Below, one piece after another: positions 1 through 7,910 of a DNA stretch of 31,161 nt (position 1 is its first letter; each line of letters opens with the position of its first letter). The notes beneath the pieces are model-generated. The model made no database searches, was not told the origin of the DNA, and saw only the letters and a program-made list of their open reading frames with translations. The position numbers were made by a program, and so were the translations under genes. Source of the DNA: a virus. The stretch lies in IMG/VR virus record IMGVR_UViG_3300017971_000622; one strand, written 5' to 3'.

Positions 1-403
1 ATCCATAATCCCCCTCATACCGCCTGTCGAGTTGAGGATAAGGCACCACGTGAGCAGGTTTTATCTGCTTCACTCCATAAGCTACACGACCCATCCCTCC
101 AATATACTCGACGCTTCTCCTGAGCTTGGCCTCTGCCTCCTTGGTGAAGTTCCGAAGATGATAACTGGCAAATTCGAGAGCTATCTTCTTGGCATTGTGC
201 CACTCAGTGTTTGGATTGCCCACCTTCACCGTAACGGGATAAGGAACGCTACCGGCCAATTTCACGGCATATCCATTACTGGTGTGCTCGACCGAGAGAA
301 TCTGCCACTCCCACGGGTCTAACCTGTCTTCAAACCTGATATTGACTGCCGTCAACTGCTTTGCCAGCCTCACCAGCTCCTGTGCTATCTTTTGTTCGTT
401 CAT
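1..403 (-). CDS. leader-family small protein (3' end runs off the window)
   Basis: My own translation from ATG 403..401. It is not in the ORF track because no stop lies in the window. Sequence: MNEQKIAQELVRLAKQLTAVNIRFEDRLDPWEW..., open to position 1. ATGA overlap with the stop of 400..681. Confidence 0.8.
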   Translation of the reverse strand, partial: MNEQKIAQELVRLAKQLTAVNIRFEDRLDPWEWQILSVEHTSNGYAVKLAGSVPYPVTVKVGNPNTEWHNAKKIALEFASYHLRNFTKEAEAKLRRSVEYIGGMGRVAYGVKQIKPAHVVPYPQLDRRYEGDYG

Positions 404-681
404 AAAGCTTCCTTCAGTGCCTCCTGCACGGCCCTCTCCGCCGCAGGGCCTGCCGCATCGCTTCCACGACCCTTTTCATTCATTATGCGCCATATTTCCT
501 TCTTCAGCTCCCCGGCCTTGCGCTCTACTTCGCTAATCTCACGACGGGCAAGCTCAAGACCCCGGCCACCGCCCTTCGCCATTTTCTCGGCGGCATCCAG
601 ATTGTCACGAATCCCCCTGCCCGCTGTCAGCGCTCTGGCCAGTCTTACCAACTCTCTGGCTATGACGTGCTCAGTCTTCAT
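400..681 (-). CDS. leader-family small protein
   Basis: ORF track. N-terminus MKTEHVIARELVRLARALTAG, followed by a charged helical body. Confidence 0.8.
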   Translation of the reverse strand: MKTEHVIARELVRLARALTAGRGIRDNLDAAEKMAKGGGRGLELARREISEVERKAGELKKEIWRIMNEKGRGSDAAGPAAERAVQEALKEAL

Positions 682-970
682 CGCTTGTCTCCTCCACCAA
701 ATGGATTATCAATCCCTCAGTGGTTTCAAGAACGTCCACGAGTTGCTTCTCGATATGCTTGAACATATTTTTGGCCACGGTGCCCATATTCTCAATTTCT
801 GTGCGCTTGACATCCTTGAAAGACCGGAACAAATCGCCCAGCTCTCGTTGCATCTTACGAAGAGCATTTAGTGCCTTTATCACATCTCGGTCATCAAGAA
901 TCCGGTCTGCCGCTGTTAGTTCTCTGGCCATGGCTACCAGCTCTTGGGCTATCTTTTCGTTATTCATCAT
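671..970 (-). CDS. leader-family small protein
   Basis: N-terminus MMNNEKIAQELVAMARELTAA. RBS-like AAGGAAGG lies upstream. Confidence 0.85.
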   Translation of the reverse strand: MMNNEKIAQELVAMARELTAADRILDDRDVIKALNALRKMQRELGDLFRSFKDVKRTEIENMGTVAKNMFKHIEKQLVDVLETTEGLIIHLVEETSDED

Positions 971-1236
971 CCGACCTTCCTTGCGGTTTCTTTTATCGCA
1001 ACACCGCCCCGAGATTCTATTCCCAAATCAGTGGCCAACTCAATGGCATCCCTCTTGCTCTTGGCCCGAACCCTCATGCTCATGGTAAGAATCCTCCTGA
1101 CCTCCCACTCCGGCAGGTCTTCCTCCAGATTCTCCCTGTGCATCCGCTCAAGAAGATTGTTGGCTATCTTCTGTATATCCATGCCAACCCAAAGCCCTCC
1201 GGGGCGGCAAGCCGCCCCATCGGACTCAATTTTCAT
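967..1236 (-). CDS. small protein with a degenerate leader (MDIQKIANNLLERM)
   Basis: ORF track. ATGA overlap with the downstream gene. The start is ambiguous: ATG 1236, or ATG 1182 which would begin MDIQKIANNLL. Confidence 0.6.
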   Translation of the reverse strand: MKIESDGAACRPGGLWVGMDIQKIANNLLERMHRENLEEDLPEWEVRRILTMSMRVRAKSKRDAIELATDLGIESRGGVAIKETARKVG

Positions 1237-1238
1237 CC

Positions 1239-1652
1239 TTACGGAATTGTTACATTCGAACCGCCCACGCCACCGAACAGTGCGCCCGTGCCATAGCGAC
1301 GGTTGCCGGTTGCGCCAACCAAGACGCTCGTGTGTACCACTTCCGAATCGGTAATCGGAATGTCATCGAGGTCACGACCCACGACGCCCAGCATCTCGAC
1401 AAGGACGTGCGTCGGCTCGGCGTCAATGTCGCCAAGGTAGTTCGATGCCGCCGCCGTAACCGAGAGGCGGTTGAACTTGGCCGCAAGCCACGGACGGGTA
1501 CCCGTCTGCGTCTGCGGGTTCCAGATGTACTTCAAGTACGTCTTGACCGCCGCCAATTCGGCTCCTGTCGGCTCCGTGATACGACTGTTCCGGGCGATGT
1601 TCCATACCCATCTCGCCCACTGCCACCAACTATATGTACTACTTCCGGCCAT
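1239..1652 (-). CDS. hypothetical Trp-rich protein with no leader
   Basis: Start trimmed to ATG 1652, which is preceded by AAAGGAGG. Sequence: MAGSSTYSWWQWARWVWNIARN... The track's longer form starts upstream of the RBS. Confidence 0.7.
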   Translation of the reverse strand: MAGSSTYSWWQWARWVWNIARNSRITEPTGAELAAVKTYLKYIWNPQTQTGTRPWLAAKFNRLSVTAAASNYLGDIDAEPTHVLVEMLGVVGRDLDDIPITDSEVVHTSVLVGATGNRRYGTGALFGGVGGSNVTIP

Positions 1653-1756
1653 TTTAGGCCTCCTTTCGTTTTTTGCCCTTAGAGGTCTCGCAAACGATAA
1701 CCTCAACATGGTCGCCACCATGGCTCCATGCCGACCCATTTGGGCATAGGGTCAAT

Positions 1757-2050
1757 CTATCTCAACTGTGAAAGTATCATATCCGGGCGTCGCAGTTTAT
1801 TCACTGCGGCACGAAGTATCTTCTCGACATCCTTCAAAACCCTGACCTCTGAGGACATCACGCCCTCTTCCTTCATCTGTTGCTCGGCATACCACGCAAT
1901 ATTCTCCACGAGGGTCGAGAAATAGTAGTTCGATTTCCTGTACCACTCCCCAACGTCGGAAAGAGTGACAGAAGCATCCATGGCTCTTTCAGCAGTCAGC
2001 TCTCTTGCCACGGCCACAAGCTCTTTGGCTACTCTCTGCCTGTTCATCAT
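1757..2050 (-). CDS. leader-family small protein
   Basis: N-terminus MMNRQRVAKELVAVARELTAE. Confidence 0.85.
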   Translation of the reverse strand: MMNRQRVAKELVAVARELTAERAMDASVTLSDVGEWYRKSNYYFSTLVENIAWYAEQQMKEEGVMSSEVRVLKDVEKILRAAVNKLRRPDMILSQLR

Positions 2051-6236: not shown

Positions 6237-6596
6237 TTAAATGGCTATGCCGTACTGCTTCGCCCATTCTTTCAATGACTCCATGCCGTAGAGGACAGTG
6301 TCGTAGTTCTTCCTCTTGGCCGCATCCCAGAACACGGGGATGATGCTGGCGTCCAAGTCTTCTATCATCTCGGCAAAATCATCCTCATCACGCACGATTT
6401 TACTCCGGGCCTTTCTGAAGTCCTCCAGTCTCATATCACGAGACTGTTCCATCAAAAACTCAGCAATCGCTTCGGCAGTCTCAACCGTGTCGTACCTGTC
6501 ACTCTTTAAGAATCTTTCGATTTCCGGCCAACGATAGACGGCCCTTCCTGCAACAAACTCTCTTACGAGCTTCTCTGCTATTTTCTGATGATTCAT
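6237..6596 (-). CDS. leader-family small protein (REFVA subtype)
   Basis: N-terminus MNHQKIAEKLVREFVAGRAV. Confidence 0.8.
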   Translation of the reverse strand: MNHQKIAEKLVREFVAGRAVYRWPEIERFLKSDRYDTVETAEAIAEFLMEQSRDMRLEDFRKARSKIVRDEDDFAEMIEDLDASIIPVFWDAAKRKNYDTVLYGMESLKEWAKQYGIAI

Positions 6597-6877
6597 CGAA
6601 TGCCCCTCACGCTTCTGAGATGGTCGGAGATGGCATTATCCAAATCTGAAAATGCCTCTGCCATAGCATCACGTTGTTTTTTCATCTTCGGACTGTCAAG
6701 CTCCGGGTTCTCCCCTCGGGTCTCGTACATGATGCCCAGTGTATTAAGATAGTAGCGCCCGAACGTGGCGAACTCCCTCCTCATCTCCTGCAACGCATCC
6801 AAGTAAGGAAACCGGGCAACTCTACTCCGGGCTACGAACTCTCTGGTCAGCCTCTCGGCTATGCGTTCTTCGTCCAT
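6593..6877 (-). CDS. leader-family small protein (REFVA subtype)
   Basis: Start trimmed to ATG 6877 (MDEERIAERLTREFVARSRV), with GAGGAG 7 nt upstream. ATGA overlap with 6237..6596. Confidence 0.8.
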   Translation of the reverse strand: MDEERIAERLTREFVARSRVARFPYLDALQEMRREFATFGRYYLNTLGIMYETRGENPELDSPKMKKQRDAMAEAFSDLDNAISDHLRSVRGIR

Positions 6878-6887
6878 GTCAGTCTCC

Positions 6888-7283
6888 TCAGAAAGCACTC
6901 AATACTGATTCCACCTTCCTTACGGTGTCATCAACAATCTTGGATATTTTGGCTATCTTGGCGTCCACCTTCCTTGCGTACTGCGGGTCATCGAAATGAT
7001 ATTTGTCCTCGGAAATCCAGATGTCTTCCTGCACGTCTGTCGCCAACTGCTCCAGCTTCTGAGCCGCCTTGTTGCGCTCACCCCACGGGTCTCCCTTCGC
7101 ACTTCGCACTCTCGATGACTTTTTCTTCTTCAGGAAGTCGGGCTTAGGCTCGTTCTCCTTGCCGTCATTGTCCTTGTCCTTGTCTTTCCACTGTTTCTTG
7201 AAAGCTTCGGGGACTTCGCCTTTCTTCGAGACCAGCTCTCTGGCCAGTCTTACCAGCTCTTGTGCCACTTCTTGTTCGTTCAT
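6888..7283 (-). CDS. leader-family protein with a Lys/Asp-rich low-complexity body
   Basis: N-terminus MNEQEVAQELVRLARELVSK, followed by KDKDKDNDGKENEPK and KKKK tracts. Confidence 0.8.
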   Translation of the reverse strand: MNEQEVAQELVRLARELVSKKGEVPEAFKKQWKDKDKDNDGKENEPKPDFLKKKKSSRVRSAKGDPWGERNKAAQKLEQLATDVQEDIWISEDKYHFDDPQYARKVDAKIAKISKIVDDTVRKVESVLSAF

Positions 7284-7293
7284 GTCAGTCTCC

Positions 7294-7668
7294 TTAAAGC
7301 CCGTAGCTTCTCGCCAATCTTTCGGCTTCTCTCGGGTCTGCGTCTATGATTGGAATAATCCTACTGATTTCCTTCAAAAAGCGAGTTCGACTCAGGTGGT
7401 CGAGTGTACGAAAGTCCAGTCTGAGATATGCCTCGGCATGTCGTGGGTCAATGTCCGTTCGGCCAAGCTTCCTGAGAGTGGAAGTTACGATATCATCATA
7501 CATGGAACGAAGAGCCGTCAGCTCTCTGGCCATTCTCACCAGTTCTCGGGCTACTCTTTCACTGGAATCAACTTTCTTGGTGCGCCGGGTCTTGACAGGC
7601 TTGCTCTCAACCGGCTCGATGATTTCAACATCCCCCACCTCGGCAAGAAAAACTCTGTGATTGCGCAT
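7294..7668 (-). CDS. protein with an internal leader copy
   Basis: SSERVARELVRMARELTAL occupies residues 35-53 (nt 7510..7566), preceded by a basic 34-aa extension. Confidence 0.75.
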   Translation of the reverse strand: MRNHRVFLAEVGDVEIIEPVESKPVKTRRTKKVDSSERVARELVRMARELTALRSMYDDIVTSTLRKLGRTDIDPRHAEAYLRLDFRTLDHLSRTRFLKEISRIIPIIDADPREAERLARSYGL

Positions 7669-7910
7669 TACGCCTCCGCAACTATTTTTGTAAGAATGTC
7701 AACAAGCCCTTCGACCGTCGTGCTTGGCCGGATAACGCCAACGCCGAACTGCTTCAGGCGCTTGCGCTTCTTCTGCGTGAGCTTGCTCATCTGGGTTTTG
7801 AGACTTCTCACCTTGGAGGCGAACTGCTCATCAATCTTCTCTTCTTCCTCGGCGGCCATAATCTCGTTGGCCAGCACCAGAAGCTGTCTTGCAACCTTGG
7901 CTCTGTTCAT
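7668..7910 (-). CDS. leader-family small protein (divergent); first gene of the array
   Basis: N-terminus MNRAKVARQLLVLANEIMAA. GGAGGG RBS upstream. Confidence 0.75.
   Translation of the reverse strand: MNRAKVARQLLVLANEIMAAEEEEKIDEQFASKVRSLKTQMSKLTQKKRKRLKQFGVGVIRPSTTVEGLVDILTKIVAEA

Follow-up and report, generated by a model that had tools for sequence, protein, structure and literature searches.

An array of small genes with a common leader

The window analysed here is a 31,161-nucleotide (nt) stretch of the IMG/VR viral record IMGVR_UViG_3300017971_000622. Between positions 2 and 7910 it carries 21 consecutive, co-oriented small genes on the minus strand that encode proteins of 71-201 amino acids (aa). 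Most of these proteins begin with one leader peptide of 19-20 residues (consensus MNNQKIAQELVAVARELTA) and continue into bodies that are unrelated to each other. From the first gene onwards, the array consists of:

7668-7910 (-): first array gene, here called the founder, 80 aa; divergent leader MNRAKVARQLLVLANEIMAA, body motif FGVGVIRPSTTVEGLVD
7294-7668 (-): 124 aa; internal leader ERVARELVRMARELTAL encoded at 7513-7560; the orthologue in contig L007 has an N-terminal leader
6888-7283 (-): 131 aa; leader at 7227-7283, then the recurrent GEVPEAFKKQWKDKDKDNDGKENEPKPDFLKKKK module
6593-6877 (-): 94 aa; degenerate leader MDEERIAERLTREFVARS
6237-6596 (-): 119 aa; degenerate leader MNHQKIAEKLVREFVAGR; the orthologue in L026 has the fuller leader MDNVKMARKLLRMARELTAK
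5951-6226 (-): 91 aa; leader MNRQKIAQELVRMAEELTAR
5362-5937 (-): 191 aa; internal leader QKTARELVAVAKELVAG encoded at 5587-5637; looks like two fused units
4994-5362 (-): 122 aa; leader MDNQRVARELVAMARELTAG
4389-4994 (-): 201 aa; leader MDNERIARRLVAMARELTAG and a second, partial copy KVARELTSGER at 4563-4595
4109-4369 (-): 86 aa; leader MDNQRVAEELLKVARELTSG
3816-4094 (-): 92 aa; leader MDNEKIAQELVAVAKELTGV
3323-3814 (-): 163 aa; leader MNNQRVARELVAVAKELSAA; orthologues in L016, L026 and P0281
3003-3323 (-): 106 aa; leader MNNQHVAKELVAIARELTAA, acidic body
2410-2928 (-): 172 aa; leader MNNQKIARELVAIARELTAA, strongly basic body (net +17)
2047-2382 (-): 111 aa; leader MNEQKIAQELVAVARELTAV; body 67% identical to a gene in L026
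1757-2047 (-): 96 aa; leader MNRQRVAKELVAVARELTAE
1239-1652 (-): p1239, leaderless; 137 aa from the conserved Met
967-1182 (-): about 71 aa; weak leader MDIQKIANNLLERM; the likely start is the second Met of open reading frame (ORF) 967-1236
671-967 (-): 98 aa; leader MNNEKIAQELVAMARELTAA
400-681 (-): 93 aa; leader MKTEHVIARELVRLARALTAG, shifted by one residue; body matches the C-terminal part of a longer L026 gene with 78% identity
2-403 (-): leader MNEQKIAQELVRLAKQLTAV; cut by the end of the window, complete in L027 (166 aa)

A leader profile identifies 17 window ORFs at 15 bits or more. Fifteen of them have the canonical copy at the N-terminus, and two have it internally (5362-5937 and 7294-7668); the profile finds no further leader in the remaining 23 kb of the window in any of the six frames. 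Five array genes carry other forms of the leader, namely the two internal copies, two degenerate N-terminal copies (6237-6596, MNHQKIAEKLVREF; 6593-6877, MDEERIAERLTREF) and one weak copy at the second Met of 967-1236, and p1239 is the sole array gene without it. An earlier note on this DNA had assigned the leader to 19 of the 21 genes, which stands if degenerate and internal copies are counted but not for canonical N-terminal copies, which number 15. The regular expression given there matches five genes exactly and 13 with up to two mismatches. A degenerate DNA pattern of the leader has 10 matches in the window and none in each of 100 shuffles. Contig L027 overlaps window positions 1-1930 and adds nine leader genes, extending the array to about 30 genes over about 11 kb.

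The genes are tightly packed. Nine of the 20 junctions overlap (by 1, 4 or 11 nt, with TAATG, TGATG and ATGA arrangements), seven have gaps of 1-19 nt with a GGAG-type site, and four have gaps of 27-104 nt.

The array members are soluble, charged and nearly free of Cys. After removal of the leaders, an all-against-all BLASTP comparison of the bodies returned no match below E = 0.003, and the best body-against-body match was an internal leader copy itself. Across 18 loci, there were no within-locus body matches at E < 1e-4, bearing out the earlier statement that the bodies cannot be aligned with each other by eye. Between genomes, many bodies have orthologues with 26-78% identity, sometimes fused to other units. 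This combination indicates that the bodies are real, distinct proteins. In L076, a 318-aa protein (883-1866, minus strand) includes a founder-like FGIGVIRGRNTVEELVD segment, and the body of window gene 400-681 forms the C-terminal part of a longer gene in L026 (12914-13462, plus strand). Bodies that are separate in the window but fused in these relatives suggest that the locus evolves by module shuffling.

The leader is conserved as a peptide

Canonical copies in the window follow the pattern M-[ND]-x-[QE]-[KR]-[IV]-A-x-E-L-V-x-x-A-[RK]-E-L-T-A. The family as a whole is described by M-[ND]-x-[QE]-[KR]-[IV]-A-x-E-L-[VL]-x-[VLIM]-A-[RK]-[ED]-L-[TV]-[AGS]; in phage proteins this pattern is N-terminal or nearly so, and it usually occurs in tandem arrays. 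Family-wide, Ala7 and Leu10 are invariant (100% each), followed by N/D2 (99%), M1, Ala14 and A/G/S19 (98% each), L17 (94%), R/K15 (93%), E9 (92%), E16 (80%, with Asp in 10%) and T18 (70%). Conservation ends sharply after residue 19, and nothing is kept beyond it. The leader can be read as two heptads A-[RQK]-E-L-[VT]-x-x preceded by M-[ND]-x-[QE]-[KR]-[IV]. Hydrophobic residues occupy positions 6, 10, 11, 13, 14 and 17 with charged residues between them, and in heptad register I6, L10, V/L/I/M13 and L17 fall at a/d, Ala at the flanking e and Glu at g. An AlphaFold2 (AF2) model of 3323-3814 has one helix at residues 3-21, which a break of three residues separates from an unrelated, beta-rich body (pLDDT 68, from a shallow alignment and of moderate confidence). 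The leader is predicted to be helical.

Selection on the leader acts on the peptide. In the 13 canonical copies, the codons of the invariant Ala7, Ala14 and Leu10 have a third-position entropy of 1.3-1.55 bits, whereas entropy is zero at position 2 for Leu10 and at positions 1 and 2 for both Ala codons. Fourfold-degenerate Ala and Thr codons use three to four codons each. By the Nei-Gojobori method, leader codons 2-20 have a proportion of synonymous differences (pS) of 0.65 and of nonsynonymous differences (pN) of 0.23 (pN/pS 0.355; corrected dN/dS about 0.18), compared with a pS of 0.75 and a pN of 0.71 for the non-homologous codons 22-40 that served as null. Pairwise leader identity is 0.70/0.81/0.51 at the three codon positions. 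Synonymous sites are near saturation while the amino acids are kept, which is the mark of peptide-level selection, as the earlier note had proposed from leader copies that differ largely synonymously; conservation at the nucleotide level was looked for and not found. The copies are old, and recent gene conversion is not homogenising them. DNA upstream of leader genes is unconserved except for the ribosome-binding site, and the second codons of the leader are A-rich (AAC/AAT/GAC).

The motif starts at Met1 in 139 of 157 cluster representatives and in 303 of the 365 unique copies in the fetched loci. Two or more copies occur in 24 of the 157 proteins, whose median length is 111 aa. Genomes have their own leader dialects, with significant mutual information between genome and residue at positions 2, 3, 4, 9, 12 and 16 (p < 0.001). 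Some dialects lose one Glu: L128 has Ala at position 9, copies in L122 mostly lack Glu16, and some members lack both.

The leader defines an uncatalogued phage family

A profile built from a 42-column leader alignment was searched exhaustively against 1.84 billion cluster representatives and recovered 363 clusters at E <= 1e-3. A word-indexed homologue search with the leader profile gave 11 proteins. We examined 157 proteins, comprising the 150 best of the 363 clusters and further word-indexed matches. A 42-bit pattern of the leader DNA gave matches in IMG/VR (15 stretches, on viral contigs as long as 181 kb), at more than 117 loci in metagenomes among the matches listed, and at one site in 185,579 species genomes. 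This lone match scores below 15 bits with the leader profile and was set aside as chance. The fetched loci contain 448 leader ORFs (365 unique), and at least eight contigs have arrays of 6-15 members (L004, L007, L016/L147, L025, L026, L107, L122 and L154). By its distribution, the family appears essentially confined to viral and metagenomic contigs and to be phage-only.

Known families do not account for it. Pfam and PHROGs searches with all 21 members produced scattered hits at E >= 0.0045, none common to two members. A tblastn search of 50,697 GenBank phage records with the 20-aa consensus, a 131-aa member and p1239 gave no match, and megablast of 25 kb of the window against GenBank phages found only the tRNA-Met. 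No description of the leader family was found in the literature searched. From these comparisons the leader appears to define a large phage protein family that is undescribed and uncatalogued, in agreement with the earlier note, whose author did not recognise it.

The bodies of the 157 family proteins are diverse, with few recurrent modules. One, GEVPEAFKKQWK.KDKD.DGK.NEPKPDFLKKK, contains a DxDxDG-like loop and directly follows the leader in window gene 6888-7283 (minus strand); it also occurs in P0012, P0013, P0033, P0038, P0136, P0141 and P0154. Others are a CxxC...CxxC zinc ribbon (TFKCPxCGTKVLEQTGYCVKCKKKV) and a module with EFPTQDA..KYL.EHPDADKS.H.

A conserved backbone frames the array

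Two genes precede the array in the window:

8366-10141 (-): protein with a TROVE domain and a Ro60-type vWA domain; upstream end of the conserved backbone
7988-8251 (-): p7988, an 87-aa ORF between TROVE (or the major vault protein, MVP) and the array

A terminator-like hairpin (8322-8348, minus strand; 11 bp, GC-rich, followed by a T-run) lies between the TROVE gene and p7988. This strong hairpin suggests that the array probably starts its own transcription unit. p7988 is kept with 36-74% identity in at least 20 related fetched loci. Of 12 IMG/VR contigs with a relative of the window TROVE-vWA protein, 10 have the order TROVE, p7988, at least one leader gene, p1239, and in several metagenome loci as well the array or founder comes directly after TROVE-p7988. 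In four of the IMG/VR contigs the cassette is minimal, and only one leader gene separates p7988 from p1239. This gene is orthologous to the founder, which has 45% identity to the copy in L148 (E 6e-25) and 30% to that in L152 (E 8e-7). Expanded versions hold 12-14 leader genes in the 22 kb examined (L147 and L154) and about 30 in the window phage. Further downstream, the backbone includes a protein of 330-410 aa, a Zn-ribbon protein and a DUF5659-like protein.

p1239 is the most conserved protein of the locus. It has 131 homologues with 49-100% identity on contigs of up to 298 kb, a size that indicates jumbo phages, and more than 20 related loci contain it. Minimal cassettes have it directly behind the founder or one gene further. 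Its AF2 model is a confident all-alpha structure with a conserved Gly-rich tail (pLDDT 84) and has no significant structural neighbour. Neither p1239 nor p7988 belongs to a known family in Pfam or PHROGs. P0199, considered as a natural fusion of the leader to p1239, was rejected on reading its sequence.

Larger proteins also carry the leader

The tag is not restricted to small proteins. Past coordinate 1 the window continues in L027, where a type IB topoisomerase of 504 aa (8493-10007, plus strand; Pfam Topoisom_I, 8.5e-12) has the leader core MREARELL.LAREL (MREARELLILARELLG, 15.1 bits) at its start. The core is also found at the start of a 238-aa protein encoded downstream of the array (17.1 bits), whose orthologue in L147 has the full leader. 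L135 encodes a 415-aa HExxH protein with a canonical leader. Pfam searches of ten larger leader proteins gave one weak "putative zinc peptidase" hit only. A P-loop kinase of the AAA_33/zeta-toxin-like type, encoded further downstream than the topoisomerase in L027 (12871-13959), starts with MNRISVELNEVAKEM.

Upstream in the window, five genes start with MN(R)E.(K/R)IA.(K/R)(V/I), namely 17090-18253, 20158-20607, 20565-21545, 21542-21910 and 21868-22917, and 18287-20197 has a related stretch internally. These genes are possible divergent members of the family, with weak profile scores. The same region (17090-22917, minus strand) encodes three HExxH paralogues, 21868-22917, 20565-21545 and the C-terminal half of 18287-20197, with the motifs HELMHWAQ, HELQHMAQ and HEMRHFSQ and ends KWKKAVKELAKAVL. 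A homologue of the HExxH proteins is encoded upstream of TROVE in L026 and L154. The product of 20158-20607 has a weak GNAT hit.

Other genes of the window

The window encodes an MVP homologue in two ORFs that lie in different frames (11717-14496, minus strand). The N-terminal repeats are at 13375-14496, and the Vault_3, shoulder and cap-helix regions at 11717-13408. The frame breaks near 13400-13410 at a AAGGGGCC run, where one added G restores DIAKARGPQMLLPNP; an assembly error, a pseudogene or a programmed frameshift could be the cause. The two halves are abutting and in the same frame in LR756500 and in three IMG/VR huge-phage contigs. Searching IMG/VR for MVP relatives with a single protein gave none, and an alignment query gave three, all without leaders.

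A transfer-messenger RNA (tmRNA; 15201-15578, minus strand; Rfam 135.9 bits) with the tag AKVINFPGVMAPAMAA and a tRNA-Met (11287-11363, minus strand) share a block with the genes for the TROVE/Ro60-like protein, MVP and an acyl-carrier-like protein (14616-14888). When 7900-11800 was searched against Rfam at a relaxed threshold, the tRNA was the sole hit, with no Y-RNA near TROVE. Further upstream, a nicotinamide phosphoribosyltransferase (NAMPT_N and NAPRTase domains) is encoded beside a Nudix protein with an N-terminal nucleotidyltransferase-like part (26538-28920, minus strand); together they form a putative phage NAD+ salvage pair. A PAPS-reductase-domain protein (25422-26435, minus strand) is followed by 23882-25012, which is similar by eye and has no Pfam hit. 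This pair (23882-26435, minus strand) may be a nucleotide or DNA-modification module. The array is embedded among RNA-related and auxiliary genes, and there is no recognisable head, scaffold or protease gene in the window or any fetched flank.

A possible docking helix for a common partner

Our preferred reading, to which we give about even weight, is that the leader forms a portable helix at the N-terminus, used for docking or as an address, by which numerous unrelated proteins attach to a single partner encoded by the phage. Binding to this partner would gather the leader-bearing proteins at one site or in one complex. The family probably began as one founder gene in a cassette of TROVE/Ro60-like gene, p7988, founder and p1239, and in some lineages the tag would have been placed on new bodies until 12-30 members were reached. 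The docking view is based on the sharp conservation boundary, the preferred N-terminal position, the conservation of both polar and apolar residues, the dialects and the presence of the tag on enzymes. Genome-specific dialects are as expected from co-evolution with one partner per genome. The idea of a tag, already put forward in the earlier note, is strengthened by a leader that is portable and found on unrelated bodies, enzymes included. We infer the binding of helix and partner, the identity of the partner, the role of the bodies as effectors or cargo and any later removal of the tag.

Several observations weigh against a docking helix. About 11-17% of leader copies are internal or duplicated, and an N-terminal position is therefore not strictly needed. 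In one orthologous pair the leader is less conserved (60% identity) than the whole protein (74%). The dialects could instead come from recombination between leaders. Finally, all array-bearing contigs belong to one collinear phage clade, so that synteny with TROVE, p7988 and p1239 may reflect shared ancestry, and arguments from synteny are weak.

By its position, p1239 is the best, though a tentative, candidate for the common partner. It is the only leaderless array gene, the slowest-evolving one, and located at or near the founder in minimal cassettes. The TROVE-vWA protein and a component of virion assembly are alternatives.

It is also conceivable, though we would lean against it, that the leader is a new kind of encapsulation or address peptide. 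Through a dedicated receptor (p1239, or a head or TROVE-ribonucleoprotein component), an expandable set of at least 30 unrelated effectors, among them the type IB topoisomerase and the HExxH proteins, would be loaded into a single particle or complex to be delivered or sequestered. The peptide would have no sequence relation to the tags of T4 capsid targeting, bacterial microcompartments or encapsulins. The readings overlap, and a docking tag could well lead to the capsid.

We consider it unlikely that the leader is a T4-like capsid-targeting propeptide that binds the scaffold or prohead core, takes the proteins into the head and is cut off by the prohead protease after Glu in A-x-E, with the bodies injected along with the DNA as anti-defence or takeover effectors. 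T4-type phages follow the same logic, with diverse internal proteins that have only the capsid-targeting sequence (CTS) in common (PMC3012670). Relatives on contigs of 190-298 kb imply jumbo heads with room for cargo, the enzymes with the tag are of types that serve as packaged proteins or effectors in other viruses (topoisomerase IB, HExxH and possibly GNAT), and the soluble, charged, almost Cys-free bodies of the window would suit this role. The two heptads each contain A-x-E, as the earlier note had pointed out in proposing cleavage there. The cleavage proposal is weakened by the internal copies and by the Glu residues, neither of which is universal (E9 92%, E16 80%; dialects of L128 and L122); their replacement speaks against a fixed Glu site and still leaves room for cleavage. 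Conservation also extends three residues beyond E16, where the last conserved residue is small and not a Glu, and leader copies occur internally and in tandem. The array's surroundings are RNA-related and auxiliary genes, and the fetched flanks lack a head, scaffold or protease gene. To our knowledge, 30 or more different cargo species would be far beyond any known case.

Somewhat less probable still is that the leaders self-associate into homo- or hetero-oligomeric coiled-coil bundles, serving as a shared oligomerisation handle that needs no separate receptor. The heptad pattern (I6, L10, V/L/I/M13 and L17 at a/d) fits such bundles, as do tandem or duplicated copies within single proteins, and dialects are equally expected if leaders must match one another. 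Two heptads are, however, short for a stable free-standing coiled coil, which would also not need the conserved polar N-terminal cap (N/D2, Q/E4 and K/R5). Self-association leaves the leaderless p1239 in every array unexplained.

A cargo tag for a vault-like MVP shell, or for the adjoining TROVE/Ro60 ribonucleoprotein, is improbable. vWA domains are protein-docking modules, and in 10 of the 12 IMG/VR loci the array or founder comes directly after the TROVE-vWA gene and p7988. A PNK-like P-loop kinase, tRNA and tmRNA are encoded nearby, and an MVP homologue lies within 4 kb upstream of the array in the window and in L107. The link to the MVP shell entertained in the earlier note is nevertheless not borne out by distribution: no MVP is encoded within 10 kb of TROVE in 12 related IMG/VR loci that have the cassette or, at another site of the contig, leader genes, and the four other MVP loci (LR756500 and three IMG/VR contigs) have no TROVE, p7988 or p1239 near MVP and no leader within 10-20 kb. 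The window MVP, moreover, has a broken reading frame. As for TROVE, its adjacency may be inherited synteny, and homologues occur in 85 cultured phage records that have neither p1239 nor the leader.

We give almost no credence to the leader being a nucleotide or expression element (a recombination hot spot that shuffles cassettes, or a 5' coding sequence under selection for how translation starts or is coupled, with the peptide a by-product), for which tight gene chaining with nine of 20 junctions overlapping, bodies reshuffled and fused between genomes, and A-rich second codons could be cited, but which is contradicted by pS of 0.65 against pN of 0.23, by a third-position identity of 0.51, by unconserved upstream DNA and by internal copies that keep the peptide without a start codon; the synonymous-site analysis largely refutes a DNA-repeat or recombination element.

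Should the leader prove to be an address tag, phages would have a new and unusually clean protein-sorting signal of 19 residues, sharply bounded and present on hundreds of proteins, and it would mark the cargo set of an uncultivated jumbo-phage clade in which proteins are otherwise hypothetical in nearly 100% of cases. As effectors of host takeover or anti-defence, the tagged bodies are promising candidates. Leader and candidate receptor p1239 could then serve as a tool for cargo loading or protein recruitment, and under encapsulation the locus would represent a natural programmable multi-cargo loading system. Even as an oligomerisation handle only, the leader would mark a large uncatalogued phage protein family. 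The locus illustrates how a gene family may grow by transfer of a tag to new bodies, from one member in minimal cassettes to about 30.

Comparison with known systems

Vault cargo resembles the proposed tag in that a dedicated module, the MINT/INT domain of PARP4 that binds MVP, brings cargo to a large shell. That module is a folded domain, whereas the leader is a short helix, and MVP and leader co-occur only in the window and L107. The 21 members contain no MINT/INT domain and no significant Pfam domain.

Leaders of ribosomally synthesised and post-translationally modified peptides (RiPPs), double-glycine bacteriocin leaders and polymorphic effectors whose common N-terminus is a trafficking module likewise combine a conserved leader with a hypervariable remainder in tandem arrays. 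The phage leader is not of the RiPP or double-glycine type and differs in having A/G/S at position 19, a variable position 20 and no GG or fixed cleavage motif, and the array bodies are folded, Cys-poor and 60-180 aa long, in contrast to the short cores of RiPPs. The window encodes no modifying enzyme, dedicated peptidase or C39 transporter.

Giant-phage head and ejection propeptides are cleaved at S/A/G-x-E. They share with the leader the jumbo-phage setting and the A-x-E that it contains twice; they have no single conserved leader sequence, and the leader Glu is dispensable in some genomes. In phiKZ and SPN3US, many packaged proteins are processed (PMC5694885, PMC7411985, PMC10052503). No relation of the array phages to the phiKZ lineage emerged in this analysis.

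Encapsulation peptides of bacterial microcompartments (BMCs) are amphipathic helices of 15-20 aa, set off by an unconserved segment, that bind a common shell or core partner through their hydrophobic face and do not require cleavage (PMC4594438). The leader similarly appears to be an amphipathic helix at a terminus (AF2 helix 3-21; N-terminal in 83-89% of copies). Its conservation ends at residue 19, but the one model (pLDDT 68) has a break of only about three residues in place of the linker. BMC peptides have no sequence conservation between enzymes and belong to metabolic operons, whereas the leader is highly conserved and belongs to phages. Neither the window proteins nor 108 array neighbours include BMC shell genes (BMC-H/BMC-P) by Pfam.

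The T4 internal-protein locus encodes diverse small internal proteins side by side, uses the CTS as an address label and varies between phages (PMC3012670). As in the leader array, a short N-terminal peptide is the only common part, and the analogy drawn in the earlier note is a fair one. The CTS, MKTYQEFIAE, has about 10 aa and no sequence homology to the 19-aa two-heptad leader; by eye there is only a loose Q..IA.E resemblance, and no Pfam or PHROG family links the two. The leader also differs in copy number (about 30 per genome against a handful in T4), in cleavage-site residues that are not invariant and in its internal copies. Although membership fails in both cases, the T4 CTS/internal-protein locus and the BMC encapsulation peptides are the closest parallels of the leader array in its proposed function.

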